Source of the DNA: Schaalia meyeri
GTDB lineage: Bacteria > Actinomycetota > Actinomycetes > Actinomycetales > Actinomycetaceae
Assembly (NCBI RefSeq): GCF_900105015.1
Contig: NZ_FNLK01000014.1
Location: 1 to 32,000, forward strand
DNA length: 32,000 bases
Reading direction: 5' to 3'
Shown here: piece by piece, positions 8,976 to 25,200 of the stretch
How the letters are laid out: each line of letters opens with the position of its first letter
How positions within the stretch are numbered: the stretch's first letter is position 1
The notes under the pieces: model-generated
What the model saw: only the letters and a program-made list of their open reading frames with translations
Database searches by the model: none
Told to the model about the DNA's origin: nothing
Translations under genes and position numbers: made by a program

Positions 8976-10463
8976 GTGGCCGACACACACGAACAAACGC
9001 GCTGGAAGCTGTCCGACCTCGTGGGGCGGCTCACCGCCGCCCTGCCCGCGAAGAACGCCGAACAGCCGGCAGCGGCGCCCGTCGTCGTGTCCGAGCGCGA
9101 GGAACCCCAGGGCGAAGGGGACGTCGCTGCCGCAGTCCCGCGCACCCTCCGGGTTGCCGCCGCGATATCGTGGCGTACCCTCGTCGTCGTCGGATTGGTC
9201 GGTATCGTCCTATGGGGGATCGCCAGGCTGACGATCGTCATCATGCCCGTAGCGATCGCGTTGACGGTCGCCGTGCTGCTGGAACCCCTGGTGTCGTGGA
9301 TGCGTCGCAAGCTGCATTTCCCGCCCTCGCTGGCCGCCGCGGTGGGCCTGCTTCTCCTATTCTTCGTGGTCGCGGGAACGCTGAGCCAGGCAGCCGCAGA
9401 GCTGATCCAGCAAGTGCCGCTGCTGGCGATGCAGGCAGCAGATGGCTTCCGCGCGCTGCTCGACGCGATTACCCACAACGAGTTCTTGAAAAACGGGCCG
9501 TTCAAGATCGACACCACCGCCCTCAACCACTGGGTCGATCAGCTGCGCACGGAGCTCGTCAACTGGCTCAATACGAATAAGGAAACGCTGGCCACGGGCG
9601 CCCTGAACATCACCACATCGGTGGGCACGCTGGCGACCTCGGGCCTGACTATGCTGTTCTGCCTGTTCTTCTTCCTGAAGGAGGGGCGCTCGATCTGGCT
9701 GTGGTGCGTGCGCCTGCTTCCGGCGCGCACCCGCGTCCTGGTACACGAGAGCGCGATTCGCGGCTGGGCGACTTTCGGCTCCTACGTGCGCACGCAGATC
9801 CAGGTCGCCGCCATTGACGCGATCGGTATCGCTTTGGGTGCGTTCTTCCTGGGTGTTCCACTGGCCATCCCGATTGGCGTCATCACGTTCTTTGCGGCGT
9901 TCGTCCCGATTCTGGGCGCCCTGACCTCCGGCGTGATCGCCGTCCTGGTGGCGGCCGTCAACGGGGGCCTGACCAAGGCGATCATCATGCTTGTCATAAT
10001 CCTGGTCGTCCAGCAGATCGAGTCGAACATCCTGCAGCCGTTCATGATGTCGAACGCGGTGTCCCTGCACCCCGTGGCCGTCATGCTGGTCATCACCGCG
10101 GGTTCCGCTATCGCGGGCATCGCGGGCGCGATCTTTTCGGTTCCGATCGCAGCGTTCATCAATGCGACGATCATGTACCTGCACGGGTACGACCCGATGC
10201 CCGAGCTGGCCACCGCGCAGGACCGGCCGGGCGGGCCGCCGGGAATCCTCGAACGAGAGATTGCCGCCTCCTACGCGGGCAAACCCGACACCCGGCAGTG
10301 CGTTGTGTGCGCGGATGAAACTACGGACGAGCCCGTTGCCTCGGCCTCCGCGGACGATCCCGACAAGCAAGCGGAAGCCGAGTTAGGCGCCTCAGCGGGC
10401 GGTTCCTCAGCGGGCGAGGGGAAATCCGCGGCAGAGGTCCCGGCGTCTCCCACGCGGCCTTGA
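8976..10463 (+). CDS. AI-2E family transporter (PerM-like permease) with long disordered termini
   Basis: AAAGGAGGG RBS precedes GTG 8976. The product has multiple TM helices and VPILGALTSGVIAVLVA...VQQIESNILQPFMMS, typical of the AI-2E/UPF0118 family. Confidence 0.85.
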   Translation: MADTHEQTRWKLSDLVGRLTAALPAKNAEQPAAAPVVVSEREEPQGEGDVAAAVPRTLRVAAAISWRTLVVVGLVGIVLWGIARLTIVIMPVAIALTVAVLLEPLVSWMRRKLHFPPSLAAAVGLLLLFFVVAGTLSQAAAELIQQVPLLAMQAADGFRALLDAITHNEFLKNGPFKIDTTALNHWVDQLRTELVNWLNTNKETLATGALNITTSVGTLATSGLTMLFCLFFFLKEGRSIWLWCVRLLPARTRVLVHESAIRGWATFGSYVRTQIQVAAIDAIGIALGAFFLGVPLAIPIGVITFFAAFVPILGALTSGVIAVLVAAVNGGLTKAIIMLVIILVVQQIESNILQPFMMSNAVSLHPVAVMLVITAGSAIAGIAGAIFSVPIAAFINATIMYLHGYDPMPELATAQDRPGGPPGILEREIAASYAGKPDTRQCVVCADETTDEPVASASADDPDKQAEAELGASAGGSSAGEGKSAAEVPASPTRP

Positions 10464-10479
10464 GCGGCTTGCGGATATA

Positions 10480-10515
10480 GCGTGCGGGTCCCGCCAATTG
10501 GCGGGACCCGCACGC
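10480..10515. terminator. Bidirectional hairpin terminator between convergent transporter and greA genes
   Basis: A perfect 36-bp palindrome GCGTGCGGGTCCCGCC-AATT-GGCGGGACCCGCACGC sits in the 70-bp gap. Confidence 0.7.
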
Positions 10516-10533
10516 GTTGGCGCAGCTTGGTGA

Positions 10534-11013
10534 TCAGCCCTCGAAGGGCGTGGCGTCAAGGATCTCGACGTCGATCATGCGTCCGGTAGGGGCCTCGAAG
10601 GAGAGTTTGTCTCCGGCCTTGTGGCCGATGACGGCGGCGCCCAGGGGAGCCTGCGCGGAGAAGACCTGGATACCCAGGTCGCCGCCCGCATCGCGGGAGC
10701 CGAGCAGGAACTTCTGCTCGCGACCCGCCACCAGGGCGGTGACGACCATGCCGGGTTCGACGATTCCGTCGTCGGCGGGGGTCTGGCCGACCTCGGCGTG
10801 CTCCAGCATCTCCTGGAGGGCCTGGATTCGCGTCTCGTTCATGGACTGTTCGTTACGTGCGGCGTGGTATCCGCCGTTTTCTCGCAGGTCGCCCTCCTGG
10901 CGGGCGGCGTCGATCAGACGCGCGATTTCGACGCGCTTGACTTCGACGCGTTCCTTTAGCTCGTTCGCCAGCAGGTCGTACTGCGCCTGCGTCAGCCACT
11001 GTGTGTCAGCCAT
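10534..11013 (-). CDS. greA: Transcription elongation factor GreA
   Basis: The product begins MADTQWLTQAQYDLLANELK and contains GDLRENGGYHAARNEQ. The C-terminal domain follows, ending ...IDVEILDATPFEG. Confidence 0.95.
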   Translation of the reverse strand: MADTQWLTQAQYDLLANELKERVEVKRVEIARLIDAARQEGDLRENGGYHAARNEQSMNETRIQALQEMLEHAEVGQTPADDGIVEPGMVVTALVAGREQKFLLGSRDAGGDLGIQVFSAQAPLGAAVIGHKAGDKLSFEAPTGRMIDVEILDATPFEG

Positions 11014-14091: not shown

Positions 14092-15411
14092 TCAGGGGCT
14101 GCCCGGCGGTGCGGGGGCGGTCGCGCCCACGACCTGGGCGACCATGCGGCCCGACGCGAGGATCCCCTCGATGAGGTCTCCCTTTTTGACCTGTCCCGAG
14201 GAGGTGATGAGCGCGCCCGACGGTGTTTTCAGGAGCGAGTATCCCCGATCCAGGGTCGCCTGCGGTGACAGCGCGGTCAGCGTCGCGCGAGAGCGGGTCA
14301 GCTCCTGGCGCTCCGATGCGAGTCGGCGTTCGATGGTGGCGCGAAGAGCGCTCACGTGCTGTGCCAACGTGGCGCGGTGCCCGTCGAGGATCGCCTCCGG
14401 CCCTCGCAGGACCGGGCGCGACGCCACGAGCGCCAGGTTTGTTCGCTCCATGGACAGGCGGGCGGCGAGGGCCCCGCGCATGCGGCTTTGCGCCTGCGCC
14501 AACCCGTCGCGCTCGCGGGCGTGGTCCGGGACGATGCGGCGCGCCGCGTCCGTTGGCGTCGAGGCGCGATAGTCGGCGATGAGGTCCAGGAGGGGTGAGT
14601 CTCCTTCGTGACCGATGGCCGACACGATGGGGGTGCGGGCGGCGGCCACGGCGCGCACCAGGCGTTCGTCGGAAAAGGGCAGCAGGTCCTCGACTGCGCC
14701 GCCTCCGCGCGCGATGACGATGACGTCCACGCCGTCGATCGCATCCAGCTCACCCAGGGCCGCACCCACTTCCGCCACGCAGTGGTCGCCCTGGACGGCG
14801 ACCTCGCGGATTTCAAAACGCGCGAGAGGCCAACGCTCCGAGGCGTTGACCACCACGTCCTCCTTCGCCTTGGCGCCTCGACCGCAGATCAGTCCGATTG
14901 TGCGGGGCGCGAAGGGCAGGGGTTTCTTGCGCGCGTCCGCGAAAAGGCCCTCGGCCGCCAGGCGGGCGCGCAGCGCTTCGATTTGTGCCAACAGGTCGCC
15001 CACGCCCTGCAGGTGAATCTCCGCTGCCTGCAGGTTCAGCCGCCCCGAACGCTCCCAGAAGACGGGCTTGACGCGCGTCACCACGCGCGCGCCCTCCGCC
15101 AGGGGAGTGCCTTCCATGATGTTCGCCCACGCCGTCACCGTCATCGACGTATCCGTCTCCAGGTCGCGCAGCGTCAAAAAGTGCATCTTAGCGCCCGGGC
15201 GCACCTTGTATTCGACGACCTGGCCCGTAACCCACAGGGGGCTCATACGGTCCACGTACACCTTGATGTTCTCCGTCAGCCTGCGCAGCGGCCACGGGTT
15301 ATCCCTCGTCGTGTCAGCCGCTTTCGCTGCGGGCGGGCGCGGCGCTAAAGGGCCGCCTGGCGTGGGGGAAGCATGGGGATGGGGCGAAGTCACGGACCCA
15401 GCATGCCACAC
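14092..15411 (-). CDS. xseA: Exodeoxyribonuclease VII large subunit
   Basis: An N-terminal OB-fold region ([10 protein letters not shown]...HFLTLRD) is followed by the catalytic core ([11 protein letters not shown]..., [30 protein letters not shown]) and a coiled-coil tail. The start is uncertain within the Pro-rich N-terminus. Confidence 0.9.
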
Positions 15412-15606
15412 GCTGGGCCAGCCCGCGTCCTCCCAGCACAGGGCGTGGGGAACACGGTCCGGGATTCAAGACGGCCCCGCCCGTGCGGGGAGCGTGATCG
15501 GCTGGTTCCCGCGCGCCCACCGCCCTTGGGGATGCGGGTAGTGCCGAATGAGGAACAGGGCTCGCCCCCGCGCACGCCCACCGCCCCGGGCGATAGGGTT
15601 GGATGC

Positions 15607-16674
15607 ATGAGCGAAAACGTCGACCTGCGCGCCAGCGCCGAAGCCCCCTTGCCCCAATCACATGGCGAGGGAAACGGGCGCATCCTGCTGGCCGCCCCCC
15701 GCGGATACTGCGCCGGGGTGGATCGCGCGGTCGACGTCGTCGAGAAGGCGCTCGAACTGTACGGGGCGCCCGTCTACGTGCGCAAGGAGATCGTCCACAA
15801 CAAGTTCGTCGTCGAATCGTTAACCAAGCGGGGCGCGATCTTCGTGCAGGAAACCGACGAGGTGCCCGAGGGGGCCCGCGTCGTCTTTTCGGCGCACGGC
15901 GTCTCCCCGGCCATTCACGCGTCTGCGGCGACCCGGAACCTGGCGACGATCGACGCGACCTGCCCGCTCGTGACGAAGGTTCACCGCGAGGCAGTGCGAT
16001 TCGCCAAGGATGACTACGACATTATTCTCGTGGGCCACCAGGGGCACGAGGAGGTTGAGGGCACCTTCGGTGAGGCCCCCGAACACATTCAGGTGGTTGG
16101 GGGGCCCGACGAGGTGGATAGCGTCGTCGTGCGCGACCCCTCCCGCGTCGTGTGGATCTCACAGACCACGCTCTCCGTGGACGAAACACGAGAGACCGTG
16201 GACCGGCTGCGCCAGCGATTCCCACAGCTGATCGACCCGCCCTCGGACGATATCTGCTACGCCACACAGAACCGCCAGGGGGCCGTTAAGCACATCGCCC
16301 CACAGGTGGATGTCATGATCGTCGTTGGCAGCGCGAACTCGTCGAACTCTGTGCGCCTCGTCGAGGTGGCCCTTGAGGCCGGTGCGGGCGCCGCGTATCG
16401 CGTCGATAAGGCCGAGGAGTTGGACGCATCCTGGTTCGAGGGCGCCCGCACCGTCGGGCTTACCTCGGGCGCGTCCGTGCCCGAGATCCTCGTGCGCGAC
16501 GTCATCGAATGGTTGCAGGCGCGTGGATTCCCCGCCGTCGAGGTGGCGCGCACCGAAACGGAGTCCACGACCTTTGCGCTGCCTCGCGACCTGCGTGCCG
16601 ACCTGAAGAAGGCCGGCATGGCCCCCACGCGCCCCCATGCGCCCCGCGTGGCCGGGCCAAACCACACGAGGTAG
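15607..16674 (+). CDS. ispH: 4-hydroxy-3-methylbut-2-enyl diphosphate reductase
   Basis: The product begins MSENVDL and contains [37 protein letters not shown] and [13 protein letters not shown] 15607 is chosen over ORF-track start 15373. Confidence 0.95.
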
Positions 16675-16711
16675 GGCAACGCCCGCGGGTCCGCTCCGAT
16701 AGGATGAGGAT

Positions 16712-17812
16712 GTGTCTCTCACTATCGGTATCGCCGGACTGCCCAACGTCGGCAAGTCCACCCTGTTTAACGCCCTGACCCGCGCGAGTGTGCTCGCCGC
16801 GAACTATCCCTTTGCGACCATCGAGCCCAACGTCGGCGTGGTCCCCCTGCCGGACCCGCGCCTGGATAAGCTCGCGGAGATCTTTGGCTCCCAGCGCATC
16901 CTCCCGGCCACCGTGTCCTTCGTGGACATCGCCGGCATCGTGCGCGGCGCCTCCGAGGGCGAGGGCTTGGGCAACCAGTTCCTGGCAAATATCCGCGAGG
17001 CCGACGCGATCTGTCAGGTCACGCGCGCCTTCAACGACCCCGACGTGGTGCACGTGGACGGCAAGGTGGACCCGGCTTCGGACATCGAGACCATCAAGGC
17101 TGAGCTGATCCTGGCCGACATGCAGACCATCGAGAAACAGATCCCGCGCCTGGAGAAGGAGGTGCGCGGTAAGAAAACCGAGCCGGTCGTGCTGGAGACC
17201 GCGCGTGCGGCCATGGAGCTGCTGGAGCGCGGCGAGCTGCTGTCCGGCCCCGAGGGCGCCAAGCTGGACCAGGACGCGCTGCGGTCCTTCCAGCTGATGA
17301 CCTCCAAGCCCTTTATTTTCGTGTTCAACATGGACGCCGCCGAGATGGATGACCAGGAGAAGCAGGACGAGCTGCGCGCCCTGGTGGCCCCCGCCGAGGC
17401 GATCTTCCTGGACGCCCAGTTCGAGGCCGAGCTGGTCGAGCTGGACGAGGCGGACGCCCGCGAGATGCTGGCCGAGTCCGGGCAGGCCGAGTCCGGCCTG
17501 GACAAGCTGGCGCGAGTCGGCTTTGACACGCTGGGCCTGCAGACCTACCTCACCGCCGGCGAGAAGGAGGCGCGCGCCTGGACGATCCACAAGGGCGACA
17601 CCGCCCCCAAGGCCGCCGGCGTCATCCACACGGACTTCGAGAAGGGTTTCATCAAGGCCGAGATCGTCTCCTACGACGACCTGGTCTCCCTGGGCTCCAT
17701 CGCCGAGGCGCGCGCCCACGGCCGGGTCCGCATGGAGGGCAAGGACTACGTCATGCAGGACGGGGACGTGGTGGAGTTCCGGTCGGGGCTCGAGTCCGGG
17801 GGGAAGAAGTGA
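16712..17812 (+). CDS. ychF: Redox-regulated ATPase YchF, with a non-canonical C-terminal tail
   Basis: The product begins MSLTIGIAGLPNVGKSTLFNALT and contains DIAGIVRGASEGEGLGNQFL and a TGS-like C-terminal domain. It ends ...DGDVVEFR-SGLESGGKK instead of the conserved ...FRFNV. Confidence 0.95.
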   Translation: MSLTIGIAGLPNVGKSTLFNALTRASVLAANYPFATIEPNVGVVPLPDPRLDKLAEIFGSQRILPATVSFVDIAGIVRGASEGEGLGNQFLANIREADAICQVTRAFNDPDVVHVDGKVDPASDIETIKAELILADMQTIEKQIPRLEKEVRGKKTEPVVLETARAAMELLERGELLSGPEGAKLDQDALRSFQLMTSKPFIFVFNMDAAEMDDQEKQDELRALVAPAEAIFLDAQFEAELVELDEADAREMLAESGQAESGLDKLARVGFDTLGLQTYLTAGEKEARAWTIHKGDTAPKAAGVIHTDFEKGFIKAEIVSYDDLVSLGSIAEARAHGRVRMEGKDYVMQDGDVVEFRSGLESGGKK

Positions 17813-20439
17813 GCGCGGCTGTGGCAGGGCAGCGTAAGGATGATGTGCATCCCATCCTCAACGAGGATGGGAAGTACATCTGCCTCACCGATGGAACGCT
17901 CTTGCCCTCTACACCGGAAGAAACCGTCCGGCAGGGGTTCATCGCGGTTTTGATAAACGAGTATGGGTATCCAGCCAACCGCATTCGTCGCGAGGTCCCG
18001 ATTTACCATGGCAGCAGCGAGATTAGAGACAGAGCGGGCAAGCCAGTTCGAGCAGACATTGTTGTTTACGCAAGTTCCACGGCTGCCGCTCGACGCGACC
18101 AAGGCCAGATCAAGTTTGTCGTTGAGTGTAAGAAGCCCGATGCTAAGTCTGGATATGAGCAACTCGTAAGCTACATATTCTCGACCAATGCGCCTGGTGG
18201 TGTCTGGACGAACGGTGTTGACGGGGATGAGTCTGACACGAAATTCTATCGAGTTGATAGGGAGCTCGCACAACTCCTTCCCGTTACTGAACTTCCGCGA
18301 GTGGATGAAAAATGGGGGTCGATCAATCGACGAAAGAAAACGGACCTTGAGAAGCCTCATGATGTTCGTCGTCTGTTCCGCCTATGTAACAGTAAGCTCT
18401 ACGGTCGTGGCATGGAGAACTTCGATTACGACATCACCATGGATATGGTGAGGATTCTCCTTGCGAAAATTGAGGATGAGTCAGCTCCTGGTGATTATCC
18501 TGCCTTCTATATCTCACAGGATGAGTATGAAAATCCGGAGGGTCGGGAGGCTGCTGCCCAACGCGTCCGTTCTCTTTTCGAGGCTTTTGCTGAGCGACAT
18601 CGAGAAGTGTTTCCGGAAGGGGAGAGGATTGAGGTCCCCGATTCAGCCATTGTTGAAGCGGTCACGGTTCTCCAACCCTGGTCGCTCGTTGTCGGTTATC
18701 AGGATGCAGATGAATGGGATGTCATGGGTGCTGCCTATGAGCAGTACACTCATCAAAACCTGAAGCGTCAACGCGGGCAGTTCTTCACTAACCGTCTAAT
18801 TGTCTCGGCAATGGTCCAGATGGCTGATCCGCAGGTAGGGGAAAAAGTTCTCGATCCAGCCGGTGGGTCCGGGGGGTTCGTAACTTCGGCTTTTCGGTAT
18901 ATGCGGCAATCGATCCTTGCGACAACTGCTCCGGGTAGTCCGCAGCGTGAACGTCAACTCGATCAGGCGAAGAATGACATTTTTCTATCGGAAATTAGTC
19001 CGAGGCTTGTCAAGCTTGCGAAGACTGCGATGCTGTTGAACGGCGACGGACACGCGGGAATGACAAAGGCGAACTCGCTTGGTCCATACGAGAAGTTGGA
19101 CCCGTGGATTCAGTCGCGCTGCGCTCGGGGTGTCCCGAAGGTGATCCTGTCGAATCCGCCGTTTGCAGGGCAGGGCGAATCGCGTATCGCTGATCCGCAG
19201 ATTCTCGCGGACTACGAGACTGCTTATCGTACGGTGGTATCTAAGGCGACGGGAGAGCTCGTACAGGAGTTGATGCAGCAGCAAAGTCCTGAACTGCTGT
19301 TCTTTGAGCGGTGTCTCGATTGGCTAGCCGAGGGTGGTCGCATGGGTATCGTGTTACCAAAGGCTTTCTTGGATACCGCGCAGGCTCACCGCGCTCGGGA
19401 GATGCTCTTCGAACGGGCGTACCTTGACGGCGTCGTCACCTTACATAAGGATTCCTTTCAGCCAGATACAGGGGTGCGTACCTGTATGGTATTTCTTACC
19501 AAAAAGACGGAGCGGCAGAGGCAGCTTCCAGAGGGTGATTACGATATCTTCATGGCAGTGTCTCAGAAGGTCGGGCAAACGTCGGAGGGGGAGCCGATCT
19601 TTGTGGTAGGCGATGACGGGCGACCTACTGCTGAAATCGACCATGATCTCGACGAGATAGTTCATGACTTCAAAGCGCTGCGGTCTGGCAGTCTAGTTGC
19701 TTCACAGTTCCGCTATGCGGTCAAGCGAAGTGATATCGACAACCGGCTTAATATCAACCCGCAGTTTTACTCACCTCATCTGAACGAGTCGATAGCCACG
19801 GTGCGTCGATTCGACGAACTTGACGGTTGGTCGGTTACCACTCTTGGTCAGCTCGAAAAGGGGATTGCGGTCTTCAAAGGCCCCCGTCTTAAGACCGAGA
19901 ATGTGATTGTTTCAGACTTGTCGTCCGGCACTGATGTTGTTGGCTACTTCACGCCCTCTGCCATGCTTCAGGATAAACGAGATTCGGCAAAGTTGATTGA
20001 TCTTGCGAAGGCGACCAACAAACAGTTGCGCGACTTTGAAATCGTCACTGTTCGCGAGGGGGATTTGCTTCTTACGCGTTCAGGTTCAATCGGTCGACTT
20101 GCTTATGTCTCTAGCGTGATGGAGGGGCAGATCGTTTCGGATGATATGATTCGTGTAAGGGTTCCATCCGAGGAGATTCGGGCGTATGTCGCCGCTTTCT
20201 TGTTGTCTGAGAACGCGATGGCGCAGATGTTGATGAATGAGTATGGATCGGTTCAACAACACCTCGAACCGGGCCATGTGCGAGATCTTCTTATCCCTGT
20301 ACCGCGGAACTGGTTGGATGCGGCTAAGTTAATTGCGAGTGGTAAGGAGTTTATAGAATCGAAGGAAGCTTCGGATCGTGCTATGCAGGCGCTCCGTACC
20401 CGCGGATTCGATCGGGGCATGACTGAGCTGCTCGGGTGA
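17809..20439 (+). CDS. Single-chain Type IIG restriction-modification enzyme (PD-(D/E)xK nuclease + N6-adenine methyltransferase + one HsdS-like target-recognition domain)
   Basis: An HsdR_N-type nuclease motif has D83 (18055-18057) and E106-C-K108 (FVVECKK, 18124-18132). The SAM motif LDPAGGSGGF is at 18850-18879, and motif IV NPPF is at 19153-19164. A TRD-like C-terminus starts near W674 (19828): WSVTTLGQLEKG...LLTRSGSIGRLAYV. The GTG start overlaps the ychF stop as GTGA. G+C is ~52%. Confidence 0.85.
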   Translation: MSAAVAGQRKDDVHPILNEDGKYICLTDGTLLPSTPEETVRQGFIAVLINEYGYPANRIRREVPIYHGSSEIRDRAGKPVRADIVVYASSTAAARRDQGQIKFVVECKKPDAKSGYEQLVSYIFSTNAPGGVWTNGVDGDESDTKFYRVDRELAQLLPVTELPRVDEKWGSINRRKKTDLEKPHDVRRLFRLCNSKLYGRGMENFDYDITMDMVRILLAKIEDESAPGDYPAFYISQDEYENPEGREAAAQRVRSLFEAFAERHREVFPEGERIEVPDSAIVEAVTVLQPWSLVVGYQDADEWDVMGAAYEQYTHQNLKRQRGQFFTNRLIVSAMVQMADPQVGEKVLDPAGGSGGFVTSAFRYMRQSILATTAPGSPQRERQLDQAKNDIFLSEISPRLVKLAKTAMLLNGDGHAGMTKANSLGPYEKLDPWIQSRCARGVPKVILSNPPFAGQGESRIADPQILADYETAYRTVVSKATGELVQELMQQQSPELLFFERCLDWLAEGGRMGIVLPKAFLDTAQAHRAREMLFERAYLDGVVTLHKDSFQPDTGVRTCMVFLTKKTERQRQLPEGDYDIFMAVSQKVGQTSEGEPIFVVGDDGRPTAEIDHDLDEIVHDFKALRSGSLVASQFRYAVKRSDIDNRLNINPQFYSPHLNESIATVRRFDELDGWSVTTLGQLEKGIAVFKGPRLKTENVIVSDLSSGTDVVGYFTPSAMLQDKRDSAKLIDLAKATNKQLRDFEIVTVREGDLLLTRSGSIGRLAYVSSVMEGQIVSDDMIRVRVPSEEIRAYVAAFLLSENAMAQMLMNEYGSVQQHLEPGHVRDLLIPVPRNWLDAAKLIASGKEFIESKEASDRAMQALRTRGFDRGMTELLG

Positions 20440-20592
20440 AAGGGGTGATCGGTCCGCAGTGAACTGCTGGGACCTCGTGGTCCGATTTGCCTGGACTTGT
20501 CGCCCTTCCGAACGTCTGTTGAAGACTGCTCTCTCGGGCCGCTCCTCGAGATTTTCGTGTGTCATCTGCGCGAAGAGTGGATATCCTGGTGA

Positions 20593-20835
20593 GATGAATC
20601 GACAGAAGGTATTATTCCTCGAGGAAAGATATACCGTGGGTGTGCAGGAAGGTCGCTCTTTGTTTCGGCAGTTAAGGCACGCGAACGTTTGACGTGTGAA
20701 ACCCGGGTTACTATTGGCACAGGATTGTGTAAGGAGTATGTGACTGGTGCTAGCATTCGCGAGATTGGGTGTTAGCCCGGGTACTCCATTGCGTGTGTTC
20801 GCAGTCTTCTAAATGGTGCGGGGACGGGGTTTTGA
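20593..20835 (+). pseudogene. Decayed helix-turn-helix gene remnant (recombinase or regulator C-terminus?) with an in-frame TAG
   Basis: One frame reads ...RERLTCETRVTIGTGLCKEYVTGASIREIGC*PGYSIACVRSLLNGAGTGF*. The pattern Y..G.SIREI...G.S...VR.LL..G is HTH-like. The TAG lies at 20773-20775. There is no start codon or RBS. Confidence 0.3.
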
Positions 20836-20894
20836 GAGCCAGGTAAACACTCAGGGAGGGTGAGTTCTTGACTCTCATGTGTAAGATGCCCTCC

Positions 20895-20918
20895 GTCGAA
20901 TTCAGGTTCAACGTCTGA
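20895..20918 (+). pseudogene. ychF: Displaced relic of the native ychF 3' end (codons VEFRFNV-stop)
   Basis: gtc gaa ttc agg ttc aac gtc tga translates to V E F R F N V stop, the conserved YchF C-terminus. Its first 12 nt match ychF 17771-17782 (gtggagttccgg) at 9 of 12 positions. Confidence 0.7.
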
Positions 20919-21062
20919 TCGTTCTTGAACGCGGCGGCGGCCGGGTCGCGCGAGGGCGTGGCCCGGCTTTCCTGTTGGGAGTGTAGCTCGCGAAGCGGAG
21001 TCGCATCACAATGCGAATCAAATGATGGTGCTGGTGATGTTATGCTGGTGGTGGAGGTAAAC

Positions 21063-21257
21063 ATGAGAACGACTGTGACACTCGATGATGACCTGCTCGC
21101 CCGCGCTGAGGAGCTCACTGGGATCAGAGAGCGCTCCGTTTTGATCAGAGACGCGGTTGAGCTCCTCGTCCGTATCGAGAGCGGCCGTCAGTTAGCTGCG
21201 CTCGGCGGTAGTGATCCAGGAGCGGAGGCTGCGCCGCGGAGCCGGGCGCGCGCATGA
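21063..21257 (+). CDS. vapB: Type II antitoxin, VapB family
   Basis: GGAGGT RBS precedes ATG 21063. The 64-aa product begins MRTTVTLDDDLLARAEELTG...RSVLIRDAVELLV. Its stop overlaps the vapC start as ATGA. Confidence 0.8.
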   Translation: MRTTVTLDDDLLARAEELTGIRERSVLIRDAVELLVRIESGRQLAALGGSDPGAEAAPRSRARA

Positions 21258-21625
21258 GAATCCTCGTTGACACGAACGTGTGGATCGACCACCTGCGCAC
21301 AACCGAGCCAGTCCTGGTCGATCTGCTCGAACGTGATCAGGTGTGCGTGCACCAGAGCGTCATCACTGAGCTGGCATTGGGCAACCTGAAAGACCGGTCG
21401 ATCTTCCTGAAGGCGTTAGAACGCTTGATGATAGTGCGTAACGTGGATGATCAGGGGGTGCGCTATTTTATCCAGGAGCGGCGGCTGTGGGGTAGGGGGC
21501 TGAGTGCTGTCGATGCGGCAATTCTGGCGAGCGTTGTTGTAACCCCTGGCATGTCACTGTGGACACGCGACAAGCGCCTGCGTCAGGCCGCGCGCGACGC
21601 GGGTGTGCTCGCGGACCTCGACTAA
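21254..21625 (+). CDS. vapC: PIN-domain ribonuclease toxin VapC
   Basis: The product begins MRILVDTNVWIDHL (first acidic residue) and contains ITELALG, SAVDAAILAS and LWTRDKRL, which supply the PIN acidic quartet. Confidence 0.85.
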   Translation: MRILVDTNVWIDHLRTTEPVLVDLLERDQVCVHQSVITELALGNLKDRSIFLKALERLMIVRNVDDQGVRYFIQERRLWGRGLSAVDAAILASVVVTPGMSLWTRDKRLRQAARDAGVLADLD

Positions 21626-21748
21626 GGGGCGTGGAGGCCGGGTCGTGAGAAGTCGCGCCCCCTCCTTGCCGCTGGTGTTGGGATGGTGGAAGCTTCGAGC
21701 AAGTGCACCCTGGGTGTGTGACTGGTCGCCCGGGTGTAGGGTGTGGCC

Positions 21749-23917
21749 ATGACGACGGATAGCCAGTACTCATGGACCAGCTTTTACATGGAGTTCGCCG
21801 ACAAACTGCTCGCCTTCAAGGACGACAGGCAGGCGTTGATCGCGGCGCTGCAGAAGGTGTACGAGGACATCGGTATGACGCTGCCGACGCTCGATGCCTC
21901 CGGCACGCCGACGGACATCGACCCCTTCACCGTCTTCGGCCTCTTCAACCGAGGCCTCGCCGAGCGCAAACGCCGAGCAATCGCAACGGGCATCGGCACC
22001 GCCCTCGGCGTCAACTCGCCCCTGACGGATGACTTCGCCGGCGTCCCGGTTCTCCTCAACATCAACGCGACCTTCTACGACCAGGCCAGCCGCGACGAAG
22101 CAGACATAGAGCGACTGTGGAACGTCTTCAGTGCCGCGCTGGCATACGCGGACCAGCCGACCGCCCCCGCCCGCGCGGCCTTCGCATCCGCCTACGACAC
22201 GGTCCTGCGCCAGCGCCGCGTCGGTTGGAACATCACGATGGGCCTCTTCTGGATCCGCCCCCTCACCTACCTCAACCTGTGCTCGCGCGACCGCTGGTGC
22301 CTCGCCCTACCCAACACGATGCCCAGCGACATTCGGGCCACCGTCGAATCCCTCCGAGACGCCCCGCCGGCCGCCGATTACCTGCAGCTGCGCGACCGCG
22401 TCCGCTCAGCCATGGACAGCGGCGACTACGAATACAAGACCTTCGCGGACCTTTCCGCGTACGCGTGGCGGGTCTCCGAAGAGGTCAACCAACGGAACAA
22501 ACGGACAGACAAAGAGAAAGAGACAGCAGTGCAGTCCGCCGCCCTCGGTGACGCGGACGTCCAGACCACGCGCTACTGGCTCTACGCGCCCGGCGAGGGC
22601 GCGCGCATGTGGGAGGATTTCTACGAGCGCGGCGTCATGGGCCTGGGCTGGGCCGAGCTGGGCGACTTGAGCGCCTACGCCTCCAAGGAGGACATGCGCC
22701 AGCGCCTGCTCGAGATCCGCACCGACAACACGTCCCAGACCAACTCGGCCCGCGCCGTCTGGCAGTTCGCCAACGAGATTAAACCCGGCGACGTTATCTT
22801 CGTGAAGAAGGGACGCTCCGAGATCCTCGGGCGCGGCGTCGTCACGGGCGACTACGTTTACGACCCGAACGGCGGGCACTACCCGCACATCCGCGAGGTT
22901 CGCTGGACCCACGCGGGACACTGGAGCCTCGACAAGCCCCTCGCCATGAAGACGCTCACCGAGGTCACCGACTACCCGGAGTTCGTGGCCACAGTCGAGG
23001 CATTCTTCGAGGACGCCGAGGAGGAGGCCTCAGGCACCGAGGAACCCGCAGTTTCCTACCCCGAGTACACGAAGGAGGACTTCCTCGACGAGGTCTACAT
23101 GGACGAAGCGCAATACGACGCCCTCGTGGGAGTGCTGCGCGCCAAGAAGAACATTATCTTGCAGGGCGCGCCCGGCGTGGGCAAGACCTACGCCGCCAAG
23201 CGCCTCGCCTACTCGATGATGGGCGTCAAGGATGCCTCGCGCGTCATGATGGTCCAGTTCCACCAGAGCTACTCCTATGAGGACTTCATCGAGGGCTACC
23301 GGCCCTGCACCACAGGCTTCGAGCTGGTCAGGGGCGCCTTCTACTCGTTTTGCAAGAAGGCGTCCGAGGACGAGGATAACGACTATTTCTTCATCATCGA
23401 CGAGATCAACCGCGGCAACCTTTCCACGATCTTCGGTGAGCTCTTCATGCTCATCGAAAGCGATAAGCGGGGGAGCAAGCTGCAGCTCCTCTACTCCCGC
23501 GAGCTGTTCCACGTGCCCTCCAACGTCTTTCTCGTCGGCATGATGAACACCGCCGACCGGAGCCTCGCGATGCTCGACTACGCGCTGCGGCGCCGCTTCG
23601 CCTTCGTTGAGTTGCGCCCGGCCTTCGACTCGGAGAGATTTGCCGAGTACCGCGCCTCGCTGGAGGACCCGCGCTTCGACGTGCTGGTGCGCGCGGTCGC
23701 GCGCCTCAACGAGGCCATCGCCGCCGACGATTCCCTCGGCGAGGGCTTTCGCATCGGTCACAGCTACTTCTGCAACATGGACGCCGACGAGTGCGACCAC
23801 GCGGCGCTCTCCTCGATCGTGGAGTACGAGCTGGTCCCGATGCTCAGGGAATACTGGTTCGACGAGCCCGCCAAGGTCGAGGAGTGGGCGCGGAAGTTGC
23901 GCGGGGCGCTGCGGTGA
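21749..23917 (+). CDS. mcrB: McrB-family AAA+ GTPase with a ~450-aa N-terminal extension (helical domain plus PUA/EVE-like candidate reader domain)
   Basis: Walker A GAPGVGKT is at 23165-23188 and Walker B FFIIDEINR at 23387-23413. The McrB signature MNTADRS has NTAD at 23546-23557, followed by ALRRRF. The start is ATG 21749 or GTG 21743. Confidence 0.85.
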   Translation: MTTDSQYSWTSFYMEFADKLLAFKDDRQALIAALQKVYEDIGMTLPTLDASGTPTDIDPFTVFGLFNRGLAERKRRAIATGIGTALGVNSPLTDDFAGVPVLLNINATFYDQASRDEADIERLWNVFSAALAYADQPTAPARAAFASAYDTVLRQRRVGWNITMGLFWIRPLTYLNLCSRDRWCLALPNTMPSDIRATVESLRDAPPAADYLQLRDRVRSAMDSGDYEYKTFADLSAYAWRVSEEVNQRNKRTDKEKETAVQSAALGDADVQTTRYWLYAPGEGARMWEDFYERGVMGLGWAELGDLSAYASKEDMRQRLLEIRTDNTSQTNSARAVWQFANEIKPGDVIFVKKGRSEILGRGVVTGDYVYDPNGGHYPHIREVRWTHAGHWSLDKPLAMKTLTEVTDYPEFVATVEAFFEDAEEEASGTEEPAVSYPEYTKEDFLDEVYMDEAQYDALVGVLRAKKNIILQGAPGVGKTYAAKRLAYSMMGVKDASRVMMVQFHQSYSYEDFIEGYRPCTTGFELVRGAFYSFCKKASEDEDNDYFFIIDEINRGNLSTIFGELFMLIESDKRGSKLQLLYSRELFHVPSNVFLVGMMNTADRSLAMLDYALRRRFAFVELRPAFDSERFAEYRASLEDPRFDVLVRAVARLNEAIAADDSLGEGFRIGHSYFCNMDADECDHAALSSIVEYELVPMLREYWFDEPAKVEEWARKLRGALR

Positions 23918-24954
23918 TCCGCGTCCGAAACCTCTACCACATGCTCGCCTACGCCTTCTCGGTGCTGACCGAGCAGGGCTACCGCGCCGTGGCCACCGAA
24001 GACTTCGACAACGCCGCAGAGCTGTGCGCCGCCATCCTTGAGCGGGGCGTCTCGCTCCAGCTCAAACGAGGCCTCGGGCAAGAGTACGTGGGCCGCACCG
24101 AGGCCCGATCCTCCCTGCGCGGGAAAGTAGAGGTCACCGAGTCCGTGAAGTCCCAGGCTCTCTTGCGTCGCCAGATGGTGTGTTCCTACGACGAGTTCTC
24201 GGCAGACACGACAATGAACCGCATCATCAAAGCGACGGTCGCCCTGCTCGTGCGCGCGGACATCTCCACGGCCCGCAAGAAGAGCCTGAAGAAGCTGATG
24301 ATCTTCTTCGCCAACGTGGGTGAGATCGACCTGCACACGGTCGACTGGAACATGCGCTTCGACCGCAACAACCGCACGTACCGCATGCTCATGGCGGTAT
24401 GCTGGCTCGTCGTCAAGGGACTGCTGCAAACCCAGAGTGATGGACGCGTACGTATGATGGACTTCTTCGACGAGCAGCGCATGTGCCGCTTGTACGAGAA
24501 GTTCATTCTCGAATACTACCGCAAGGAACACCCTCGCCTCCGCGCCAGCGCATCCTTCATCGACTGGGCGCTGGACGATGGGGCCTCGGACGGCCTGCCC
24601 GCCATGCGCAGCGACGTGACGCTCACGCGGGGCGGCCGGGTGCTGATCATCGATGCAAAGTACTACGAGCGTGCGATGCAACAGAACTTCGACAAGAGGA
24701 CCGTGCATTCGGGGAACCTGTACCAGATCTTCGCCTACGTGAAGAACAAACAAGCCGAGCTGGAGCGCGCGGGGGAGAGCGCCGAGGTCTCGGGCGTGCT
24801 CCTCTACGCCGCCACCGACCAGGAGATTCAACCCGACTTCGCCTACCGCATGAGCGGCAACCGCGTCAGTGCGATGACCCTCGACCTGGACCAGCCCTTC
24901 GCGGCGATCCGCGCCCGGCTCGACGCGATTGTCGAGGAGTATCTTCCGGCATGA
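23914..24954 (+). CDS. mcrC: McrC-family PD-(D/E)xK nuclease subunit
   Basis: GTG 23914 overlaps the mcrB stop as GTGA. The product begins VIRVRNLYHMLAYAF. The nuclease motif comprises D (24613-24615, MRSDVTL) and IIDAKYY, with D-A-K at 24652-24660. Confidence 0.8.
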   Translation: MIRVRNLYHMLAYAFSVLTEQGYRAVATEDFDNAAELCAAILERGVSLQLKRGLGQEYVGRTEARSSLRGKVEVTESVKSQALLRRQMVCSYDEFSADTTMNRIIKATVALLVRADISTARKKSLKKLMIFFANVGEIDLHTVDWNMRFDRNNRTYRMLMAVCWLVVKGLLQTQSDGRVRMMDFFDEQRMCRLYEKFILEYYRKEHPRLRASASFIDWALDDGASDGLPAMRSDVTLTRGGRVLIIDAKYYERAMQQNFDKRTVHSGNLYQIFAYVKNKQAELERAGESAEVSGVLLYAATDQEIQPDFAYRMSGNRVSAMTLDLDQPFAAIRARLDAIVEEYLPA

Positions 24955-25072
24955 GGCCGCCGCTCGGCCGGAGGGGCCTTCTACCGCTGATACCGCTGAG
25001 AAGAGGCGGGGGAGGCGTGCGCAACTTCTGTCGTGTTAACGCCTGGCGTCAATAACGCGCCTCGTCATATCA

Positions 25073-25200
25073 CGTGGGTACGATTCAATCGTTTGGTGAT
25101 CGTCAGACTGAGCGGTTGTTTGCAAGGGAGGCCGCGGCCTCCCTTCGACCCGCGCATCGCGCGCGTTGCACTGCGCGCTGTTCACCGTGCGAGTGAGTGA
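25073..25200 (+). pseudogene. higB: HigB-like (RelE/ParE superfamily, killer-protein type) toxin gene relic, frameshifted and truncated
   Basis: One frame gives VGTIQSFGDRQTERLFARE. The +1 frame continues GRPRPPFDPRIARVALRAVHRASE-stop. Together these resemble the HigB N-terminus (I.SF...TE.LF.G.....F..I.RVALRKL..L). There is no antitoxin gene and no C-terminal half. Confidence 0.45.

Follow-up and report, generated by a model that had tools for sequence, protein, structure and literature searches.

The 32 000-nucleotide stretch of Schaalia meyeri DNA analysed here (contig NZ_FNLK01000014.1, positions 1–32 000; hereafter the window) carries a precise 3.1-kb insertion in the last codons of ychF, the gene for the redox-regulated ATPase YchF. 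The window agrees exactly with S. meyeri CP066065.1. The insertion holds a restriction–modification gene whose start codon overlaps the new ychF stop codon, and it ends YchF with a short peptide tail that recurs in other actinobacterial genera. We think it likely that the insertion belongs to a family of islands integrated by large serine recombinases (LSRs) at the last ychF codons, being either a remnant that has lost its recombinase or a member dependent on one acting in trans, and that the conserved replacement end of these islands serves to drive their cargo.

Two junctions delimit the insertion. On the left, ychF (16712–17812, forward strand; 366 residues in the list of open reading frames (ORFs), with Pfam matches to MMR_HSR1 and YchF-GTPase_C) is native in sequence up to ...VEFR (17782) and element-derived thereafter: the frame switches from ...DGDVVEFR to SGLESGGKK-stop at 17783–17812, and the YchF-GTPase_C match ends at profile position 82 of 84. 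On the right, GTCGAATTCAGGTTCAACGTCTGA at 20895–20918 encodes an orphan VEFRFNV-stop. The degenerate pattern GTNGARTTYMGNTTYAAYGTNTRR has a single match in 32 kb, at this orphan end, and none in 100 shuffles, and a profile of 98 native ychF ends matches it with E = 1.4e-7, so the orphan end is no chance match. Just beyond it, hairpin scanning and folding identify the native intrinsic terminator of ychF (20939–20968, forward strand; a 13-pair stem with 10 G-C pairs, then TTTCCTGTT; fold z = −3.5), now 3.1 kb from its gene. The G+C content, 0.65–0.70 (about 0.67) up to 17750, falls to 0.49–0.56, about 0.52, over 17900–20900, and the two junctions share an imperfect 12-nt direct repeat, GTGGAGTTCCGG and GTCGAATTCAGG, identical at 9 of 12 positions. 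The switch of tail, the orphan end, the hairpin, the fall in G+C and the repeat had been pointed out in a first-pass annotation made from the letters of the window, and the sequence agrees with it on each.

In the terms used for integrated elements, the left junction core GTGGAGTTCCGG (17771–17782, forward strand) would be attL, with the crossover placed at or near the TT at 17777–17778, followed by an element-derived P' arm (17783–17812, forward strand) that encodes SGLESGGKK-stop, contains the G-rich run GGGGGGAAGAAG and is common to the relatives with an alternative tail. The right end of the insert (20870–20894, forward strand) is a putative P arm, which half-site comparison finds not to be conserved with other cargo islands, and attR (20895–20918, forward strand) would comprise the core GTCGAATTCAGG and the displaced native ychF end TTCAACGTCTGA, encoding VEFRFNV-stop.

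The insertion is seen directly by comparison with relatives whose site is empty. A YchF scan of species-representative genomes gave 80 loci, among which synteny 5' of ychF is conserved. Homology of the window to native-tail species representatives ends at 17781, and to alternative-tail relatives it continues through the tail to 17812–17815; no downstream synteny was found within 10 kb in the nearest species representatives (L001–L010). The empty site was reached by way of YchF protein clusters, which led to oral-metagenome contigs with YchF 93–94% identical to that of the window. In the native-tail relatives among these (L106–L113) the window aligns up to 17781–17783 and again from 20894/20895, the two alignments overlapping by 12–14 nt in the relative, and the right junction is collinear with their ychF end. 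The join of 17783 to 20894/20895 is the one that the first-pass annotation had predicted for an empty site, and the interruption of homology at these two points means a precise insertion, a single discrete piece of foreign DNA with the boundaries proposed. The terminator hairpin of the window lies directly 3' of the native stop codon in L106, L108, L111 and L113, so that it is indeed the ychF terminator that has been displaced by 3.1 kb. The expectation that FRFNV is the ancestral YchF end in this clade also holds; the native end is found in 68 of the 80 loci across Actinobacteria.

Relatives with other cargo share the tail and resume homology with the window at 20895; hence the cargo-specific DNA is 17813–20894, and the tail (17783–17812) and the remnant are, as judged from these alignments, shared edges of the islands. 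A possible objection is that the long arrangement is the ancestral one and that the relatives deleted 3.1 kb between the 12-nt repeats, since deletion between short direct repeats would also yield an 'empty' sequence. We regard this as extremely improbable: the segment has a G+C content 15 points below that of its flanks, the native FRFNV end predominates in the loci just mentioned, the same position is filled by many unrelated cargos, and the enzyme encoded by the insert is more similar across genera than YchF is.

The replacement tail is not peculiar to the window. YchF ends in EFR-[ST]GL[TA]SGGKK, or in the shorter TGLTSKK, in 57 of the 120 closest clusters and in FRFNV in about 55. The species representatives with the tail (L001, L003, L005, L009, L011, L013, L041 and L068) belong to eight genera, namely Actinomyces, Schaalia, Trueperella, Arcanobacterium, Kocuria, Microbacterium, Nocardia and Galactobacter. 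An orphan VEFRFNV-stop lies 0.5–9.5 kb downstream in five of these representatives (L003, L005, L009, L013, L068); none was found within the stored flank of L001, L011 and L041. In all, the tail is altered or additional ychF ends are present in at least 21 of the 80 species-representative loci. At least four different cargos, between identical flanks, follow the tail of a YchF protein that is the same in each case (P0006).

The first-pass annotation had taken the foreign nine-residue tail to be an accident, left unrepaired in a housekeeping protein, and had named cassette-free relatives with the same YchF end as evidence that would speak against its account. Such relatives exist: the EFRSGL.SGGKK-type end is shared by relatives without this cassette. 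Because they carry other cargo at the site, what falls is the accident and not the insertion. From the sequences, the element does 'repair' ychF, with a conserved alternative end of its own; the gene is still a 366-residue ORF, and the insertion lies at the 3' end of a housekeeping gene. The tail occurs in 16 nucleotide variants; pairwise comparison of the 11 that have nine codons gives 190 synonymous and 90 non-synonymous codon differences (the pairs are not independent), the synonymous ones including switches between TCN and AGY serine codons; this excess points to constraint on the tail peptide as well as on the DNA. The window tail is the sole variant of the 16 with GAGTCC in place of ACGTCT (a T-to-E change), which fits a site no longer selected for recombination.

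Further ends occur at the same junction, in L025 (4619–6080), L027 (11051–16905) and the proteins P0052, P0078, P0081, P0095 and P0101. EFR-HS-stop goes along with downstream ychF duplications of up to 30 codons; FRFSKTS ends YchF in 5 of the 120 closest clusters. The EFR-HS and FRFSKTS tails suggest further element families or homologous-recombination events at the ychF site. In two native-tail YchF alleles, P0093 and P0080, the stop codon has been lost and the frame runs on across the terminator region (...FRFNVYSFLNEAAAGSREGVAR...), their extension being a translation of the sequence found 3' of the remnant in the window.

That no recombinase is left in the insert had been noted from the sequence, and this applies to the whole window. 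Compared with the 32 kb by tblastn, five LSRs from sibling islands and other proteins of the elements had no match better than E ~0.3, and Pfam searches of all large flanking ORFs returned housekeeping, toxin–antitoxin and McrBC genes only, with no recombinase. Sibling islands do carry LSR genes (domains Resolvase, Recombinase and Zn_ribbon_recom), in L003, L009, L011, L013, L081, L082–86, L092/94 and L129; that of L011 spans 9134–10666, and that of L129 encodes 513 residues. Homologues of these LSRs turned up solely where the tail is changed or additional ychF ends are present, and no single-site locus had one; the sibling LSRs align to annotated actinobacteriophage serine integrases over 97–100% of their length, at ~31% identity. 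Mateo-Caceres et al. (2024, PMC11551731) described the ychF gene as a new site at which LSR-encoding pipolins of Actinomycetota integrate. The absence of a recombinase from the window is thus explained by the LSRs of the sibling islands together with the published use of ychF as an LSR site.

The link between tail and recombinase is close. A spacing of 9 nt separates the stop codon of a TGLTSKK tail from the LSR start codon in L003, L009 and L082, and a metagenome scan for this module (tail TGLTSKK-stop, 9 nt, LSR) found 40 contigs, in which near-identical copies adjoin ychF, invariably at one nucleotide position, in at least 10 alleles of the gene. Such a distribution of one module over at least 10 alleles is, at the level of sequence comparison, direct evidence of recent, site-specific spread. 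The module may alternatively follow a cargo cassette that itself follows ychF; one such cassette, 2,884 nt long, encodes an AAA_13 ATPase, and another a Gabija pair (L137). In phage and plasmid collections the LSR element was not found in a free (attP) state, the matches being distant integrases at ~30% identity, and pattern scans of IMG/VR found one contig, an integrated tandem form. Two contigs in which the module is not preceded by ychF, L129 and L137, were considered as attP circles and rejected: L129 lacks a terminal overlap, and L137 proved to be the Gabija cassette between two tail sites. Another locus, L081 (2001–8530), has at the ychF site a compact element of ~6.5 kb with a D5-type primase-helicase; its LSR of 458 residues adjoins a degenerate right junction, and a 179-residue cargo ORF starts at the ychF stop codon. 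It looks like a self-replicating integrative element or satellite.

Complete VEFRFNV-stop arrays 3' of ychF are found in several native-tail genomes (L028, 11063–14400; L038, L049, L023, L024, L033, L040, L042 and L051). Each array copy is preceded by a conserved arm of ~24 nt (GAGGTTGnTCGGCTnCGGAACGTG); in L028 the copies are also followed by GTTCCGGTTCAACCTC, and the EFR|FNV junction lies at the centre of the imperfect palindrome so formed. The array cassettes hold glyoxalase, TetR plus aldo-keto reductase, and MNT-HEPN genes, and the same two cassettes stand in opposite order in L023 and in L042/L051. No LSR homologue was found within 10 kb of the arrays. They raise the alternative that a different recombination system, whether an integron-like tyrosine recombinase or another, acts on palindromic attC-like sites, the LSRs being mere passengers; arrays with the upstream arm and without a nearby LSR homologue (L028, L038, L049), and the palindromic form of that arm where examined (L028), would fit it. 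We hold this to be very unlikely, given that no tyrosine recombinase was seen in any listed island, that LSR genes start 9 nt from the site in many independent contexts, and that the alternative-tail sites, that of the window included, are those tied to LSRs.

The attachment site can be outlined from these comparisons. The attB site would be the conserved coding sequence ...GACGTSGTSGAG-TT-CMGSTTCAACGTCTGA, in a ychF-end region containing ...GGACGGNGACGTSGTSGAGTTCMGSTTCAACGTCTGATCG..., with crossover at or near the TT of GAGTTC. In the 40 module copies the R codon is always CGC, and variation, mostly following the host allele, reaches through the third base of the F codon; it is this constant R codon next to host-variable upstream bases that places the crossover, and both its position and the roles given to the half-sites are inferred from such comparisons. 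Counted outward from the TT, the motif ACGTC occupies positions 9–13 in the B arm, 10–14 in B' and 15–19 in P' arms (in nearly all variants), and the LSR-bearing element of L003 has TTACGC at the mirrored place of its P arm. In serine integrase sites, the motif of the zinc-ribbon domain is displaced 5 bp outward in attP relative to attB (Rutherford et al. 2013, PMC3783163), and the outward shift of ACGTC by 5 bp is a suggestive match to this rule. The P' arm of the window has GAGTC at the ACGTC place, and its P arm is not clearly P-like.

The insert contains, as had been described from its ORFs, a Type IIG gene and a decayed helix-turn-helix region, which domain matches and in-frame stop codons bear out. 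The 876-residue ORF (17809–20439, forward strand) combines an HSDR_N_2 PD-ExK nuclease domain (residues 36–161), an N6_Mtase domain (304–570; both Pfam) and a Specificity_I-like region (715–833; PADLOC), with PADLOC matches to MTase_II, REase_MTase_IIG and Specificity_I. The motifs D..ECK (residues 81–108), DPAGGSGGF (at 349) and NPPF (at 449) are present; the methyltransferase part is of the gamma class of N6-adenine enzymes, a single target recognition domain resembling that of Type I S subunits lies at the C-terminus, and RM.BsaXI (8w0p) is the nearest solved structure. Judged by these domains and motifs, the ORF is a single-chain Type IIG/IIC restriction–modification enzyme that looks intact; it is 100% identical to a Schaalia meyeri protein. 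An inverted repeat at 17834–17888 (26-nt arms, 81% complementary, 3-nt loop) lies within the first 80 nt of its coding sequence, just past the overlapping start, and could influence translation initiation.

Downstream of the enzyme gene, a consensus scan alone points weakly to a terminator-like hairpin ~90 nt 3' of the stop codon (20532–20551, forward strand), and six-frame translation reveals a pseudogene of an HTH_58 helix-turn-helix protein (20677–20844, forward strand; PF19575, E = 1.5e-6, 28.5 bits) with in-frame stops at 20773 and 20833. The 455-nt non-coding part (20440–20894) has no homologues in 113 related loci by blastn or tblastx, and the Pfam HTH_58 match alone gave identity to any part of it. 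A second, degenerate att site near 20500 (...TTCCGAACGTCTG...), which would have split the insert into two cassettes, was considered and set aside, as the profile of 98 native cores does not detect it.

The tail also appears to serve the cargo. The GTG start codon of the enzyme gene overlaps the ychF stop codon (GTGA), and the G-rich, Shine–Dalgarno-like run GGGGGGAAGAAG closely precedes this overlap. Of 23 distinct tail contexts, 8 have an overlapping RTGA that starts an ORF of 160 codons or more, and a further 7 have an LSR gene beginning 9 nt past the stop. We propose that the tail doubles as a ribosome-binding adaptor for the first cargo gene. As the two genes have no gap between them and the native terminator now lies at 20939–20968, the cargo is most simply part of the ychF transcript, and the Type IIG enzyme is probably expressed from ychF.

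The proposed course of events is then as follows. Integration would replace R-FNV-stop by R-[ST]GL[TA]SGGKK-stop through the P' arm of the element, lengthening YchF by only six residues, and the ~30-nt tail would supply the Shine–Dalgarno-like sequence and an RTG start overlapping the new stop. The first cargo gene, in the window the Type IIG enzyme, would be transcribed from ychF and translationally coupled to it, and the original FNV-stop and terminator would end up at attR (20895–20968). In the S. meyeri copy the recombinase and other element genes would since have gone, the HTH_58 gene would have become a pseudogene and the putative recombinase-binding motif of the tail would have mutated.

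Several observations weigh against this account. The 32-kb window has no LSR gene or fragment, so that the role of a recombinase here is taken from sibling loci, and no circular or excised form was seen. The ACGTC motifs of attB are forced by its D-V and N-V codons, and the argument from the 5-bp shift is post hoc. The P arms of the right junctions are heterogeneous, some being attP-like and some resembling the B arm of ychF, and that of the window fits neither well; P arms that copy the ychF B arm would restore an attB, which may account for tandem arrays. The attP reconstructed from the window has dyad symmetry at 6 of 13 pairs, not above chance. Co-transcription with ychF we infer from the zero intergenic distance alone. 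Last, long remnants elsewhere (up to 30 codons, in L027) suggest that homologous recombination also acts at the site.

This last point bears on how the cassette reached S. meyeri. It may have integrated there and later lost its recombinase, or it may have come in by homologous allelic exchange from a related Schaalia or Actinomyces strain. Such exchange would have run through the conserved flanks, with ychF at the left side and the remnant, terminator and vapBC at the other, and a recombinase would have acted only in an earlier host. The strains with P0006, in which a single YchF protein stands before at least four cargos between identical flanks and the flanks are 80–90% identical, argue for such exchange, as do the lack of a recombinase in the window and the long ychF duplications of L027 and L038, which show homology-driven events at the site. 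The origin of the junction would still need a site-specific event, however, the nearest homologues of the enzyme are in other genera and not in Schaalia relatives, and no Schaalia donor with this cargo was found except S. meyeri itself; we see exchange as a possible but not a probable route.

At other loci, too, cargo goes with the ychF site. The nearest homologues of the enzyme outside S. meyeri, 81–83% identical, lie directly 3' of ychF in L100–104 and L105, whose YchF is only 71–72% identical to that of the window; another homologue, in Microbacterium arabinogalactanolyticum, is not near ychF. L105 keeps the native FNV-stop, followed by CTCTGGAGGCAAGAAGTG, the same leader as at the end of the tail, and has a further site consisting of EFRFNV-stop and the leader after the enzyme gene. 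A cassette with a single HEPN ORF is common to Microbacterium sp. 1154 (L013) and a Schaalia-like contig (L095), at 69% amino-acid identity, and its limits in both are the overlapping start codon and the VEFR core. L013, L082, L137, L028 and L105 show tandem and recombinase-less arrangements. The Gabija-like pair (OLD-family ATPase and UvrD helicase; L137, 42–3470) forms a cassette between two alternative-tail sites, and so does the AAA_13 ATPase, between ychF and the LSR module (L082, 11060–13944; L086, 3236–7204), its gene in L086 being interrupted by an insertion sequence (rve transposase).

The window cassette could still be mobile, as a non-autonomous unit comparable to the staphylococcal cassette chromosome (SCC) without ccr and moved in trans by an LSR from elsewhere in the genome or from an incoming element. 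The exact boundaries of recombinase-less cassettes in distant genera (HEPN in L013 and L095), the AAA_13 and Gabija cassettes between ychF and the LSR module, the swapped cassette order of L023 and L042/L051 and a staphylococcal precedent (PMC11470126) favour the idea. We consider it unlikely for this copy, in which the tail alone among the 16 variants has GAGTCC for ACGTCT, the P arm is not recognisably conserved and the cassette carries a pseudogene; moreover, no excised form was seen, and no LSR is known for the S. meyeri genome. The loss of the recombinase, the HTH_58 pseudogene and the mutated tail motif together make it most likely that the cassette is fixed in place, immobile and working as a constitutively expressed restriction–modification defence gene.

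More speculatively, the 3' end of ychF in Actinobacteria might be a cassette platform at which small promoterless cassettes, often of one ORF and with the Type IIG gene of the window among them, are inserted, stacked and shuffled by serine recombinases in trans, a serine-recombinase analogue of the integron. The site of ~40 nt would then be triple-coded, as recombinase target, as replacement C-terminus of an essential-class GTPase/ATPase, and as Shine–Dalgarno sequence and start codon for the cargo. We offer this broader reading tentatively, as possible but not probable.

Of the systems already described, the pipolins at ychF share with the window island the phylum, the target gene, the recombinase class (through the siblings) and the presence of defence cargo (PMC11551731). 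The window island differs in having no piPolB, no LSR and one intact gene; the insert, consisting of the restriction–modification gene and the HTH_58 pseudogene, has no piPolB and is thus not classed as a pipolin. In the passages searched, PMC11551731 names ychF from genetic context, with no mention found of a replacement tail, a stop–start overlap or recombinase-less cassettes. The ychF site and the recombinase class are already published, and the window insertion would be a rather unremarkable, decayed example of a type of island described only recently (PMC11551731). As far as the literature searches show, earlier work reports neither the conserved tail and its putative function as expression adaptor nor the arrays and small cassettes that lack a recombinase.

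In behaviour the closest analogue is SCC/SCCmec, by analogy and not by membership. Both involve LSRs and a housekeeping target, tandem arrays bounded by att repeats, and recombinase-less defence cassettes, and att-like junctions bound the cassette of the window. SCC integrates at the 3' end of rlmH (orfX), leaving the ORF intact. In staphylococci, the Ccr serine recombinases that insert cassettes downstream of rlmH mobilise tandem recombinase-less SCC-like defence cassettes as well (PMC11470126). The ychF islands differ in phylum, in their target (ychF, not rlmH) and presumably in recombinase lineage (CcrAB/C in SCC), and their cassettes, unlike SCC, can be a single promoterless ORF starting at the stop codon of the target gene.

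Phage serine integrases such as those of Bxb1, with its attB in groEL1, A118, in comK, and also phiC31 provide a second comparison. The ychF islands resemble them in the short imperfect core similarity, an attB in coding sequence and, tentatively, a half-site motif shifted by 5 bp (PMC3783163). They are, in contrast, no prophages but islands of 0.5–10 kb with defence or toxin–antitoxin cargo, and the target gene gains a conserved alternative C-terminus instead of being inactivated. With integron cassettes they have in common a small size, often a single ORF, the lack of a promoter, one site 3' of a resident promoter and the possibility of arrays. They differ from integrons in having no IntI and no attI/attC, in the linked serine recombinase, and in an expression signal derived from a housekeeping gene and an att site in coding sequence; no tyrosine recombinase was found in the window or in the listed sibling islands, which are thus not integrons.

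For this genome the gain is modest: the odd C-terminus of S. meyeri YchF is explained, and a restriction enzyme appears to be wired into a housekeeping operon. For the site, an attachment locus earlier named from gene context only is now documented at nucleotide resolution, and the integrating elements seem to supply a conserved substitute for the end of YchF that doubles as an expression adaptor for cargo genes. The ychF site may serve as a marker for defence genes in Actinobacteria, among them oral Actinomyces and Schaalia, Microbacterium, Kocuria and Nocardia, and with the cognate serine integrases it could offer a natural 'landing pad' for genetic work on these bacteria, which are hard to manipulate.

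Around the insertion, ispH (15373–16674) precedes ychF, and an Rfam search of 16500–22000 found no RNA family at E ≤ 1. A vapB–vapC toxin–antitoxin pair (21063–21625, forward strand; Pfam VapB_antitoxin and PIN) belongs to the conserved chromosomal flank outside the insertion and is collinear in L093 after a different cargo. It is followed by mcrB/mcrC (21743–24954) and then by an EamA transporter gene on the other strand. A second variable slot for defence genes separates vapC from the EamA gene; it is occupied in the window by McrBC (21743–24954), in L093 by RmuC and a DUF2726 helicase, and in L106–L108 by McrBC variants with an extra Eco57I-type methylase. A non-coding segment of ~140 nt 3' of mcrC (25036–25176) is 74–76% conserved in relatives at differing positions (L092, 20204–20343; L106, 13888–14028; L110, 5660–5800), where its copies adjoin extra hairpins resembling the ychF terminator; this segment may be a small repeated or mobile element.

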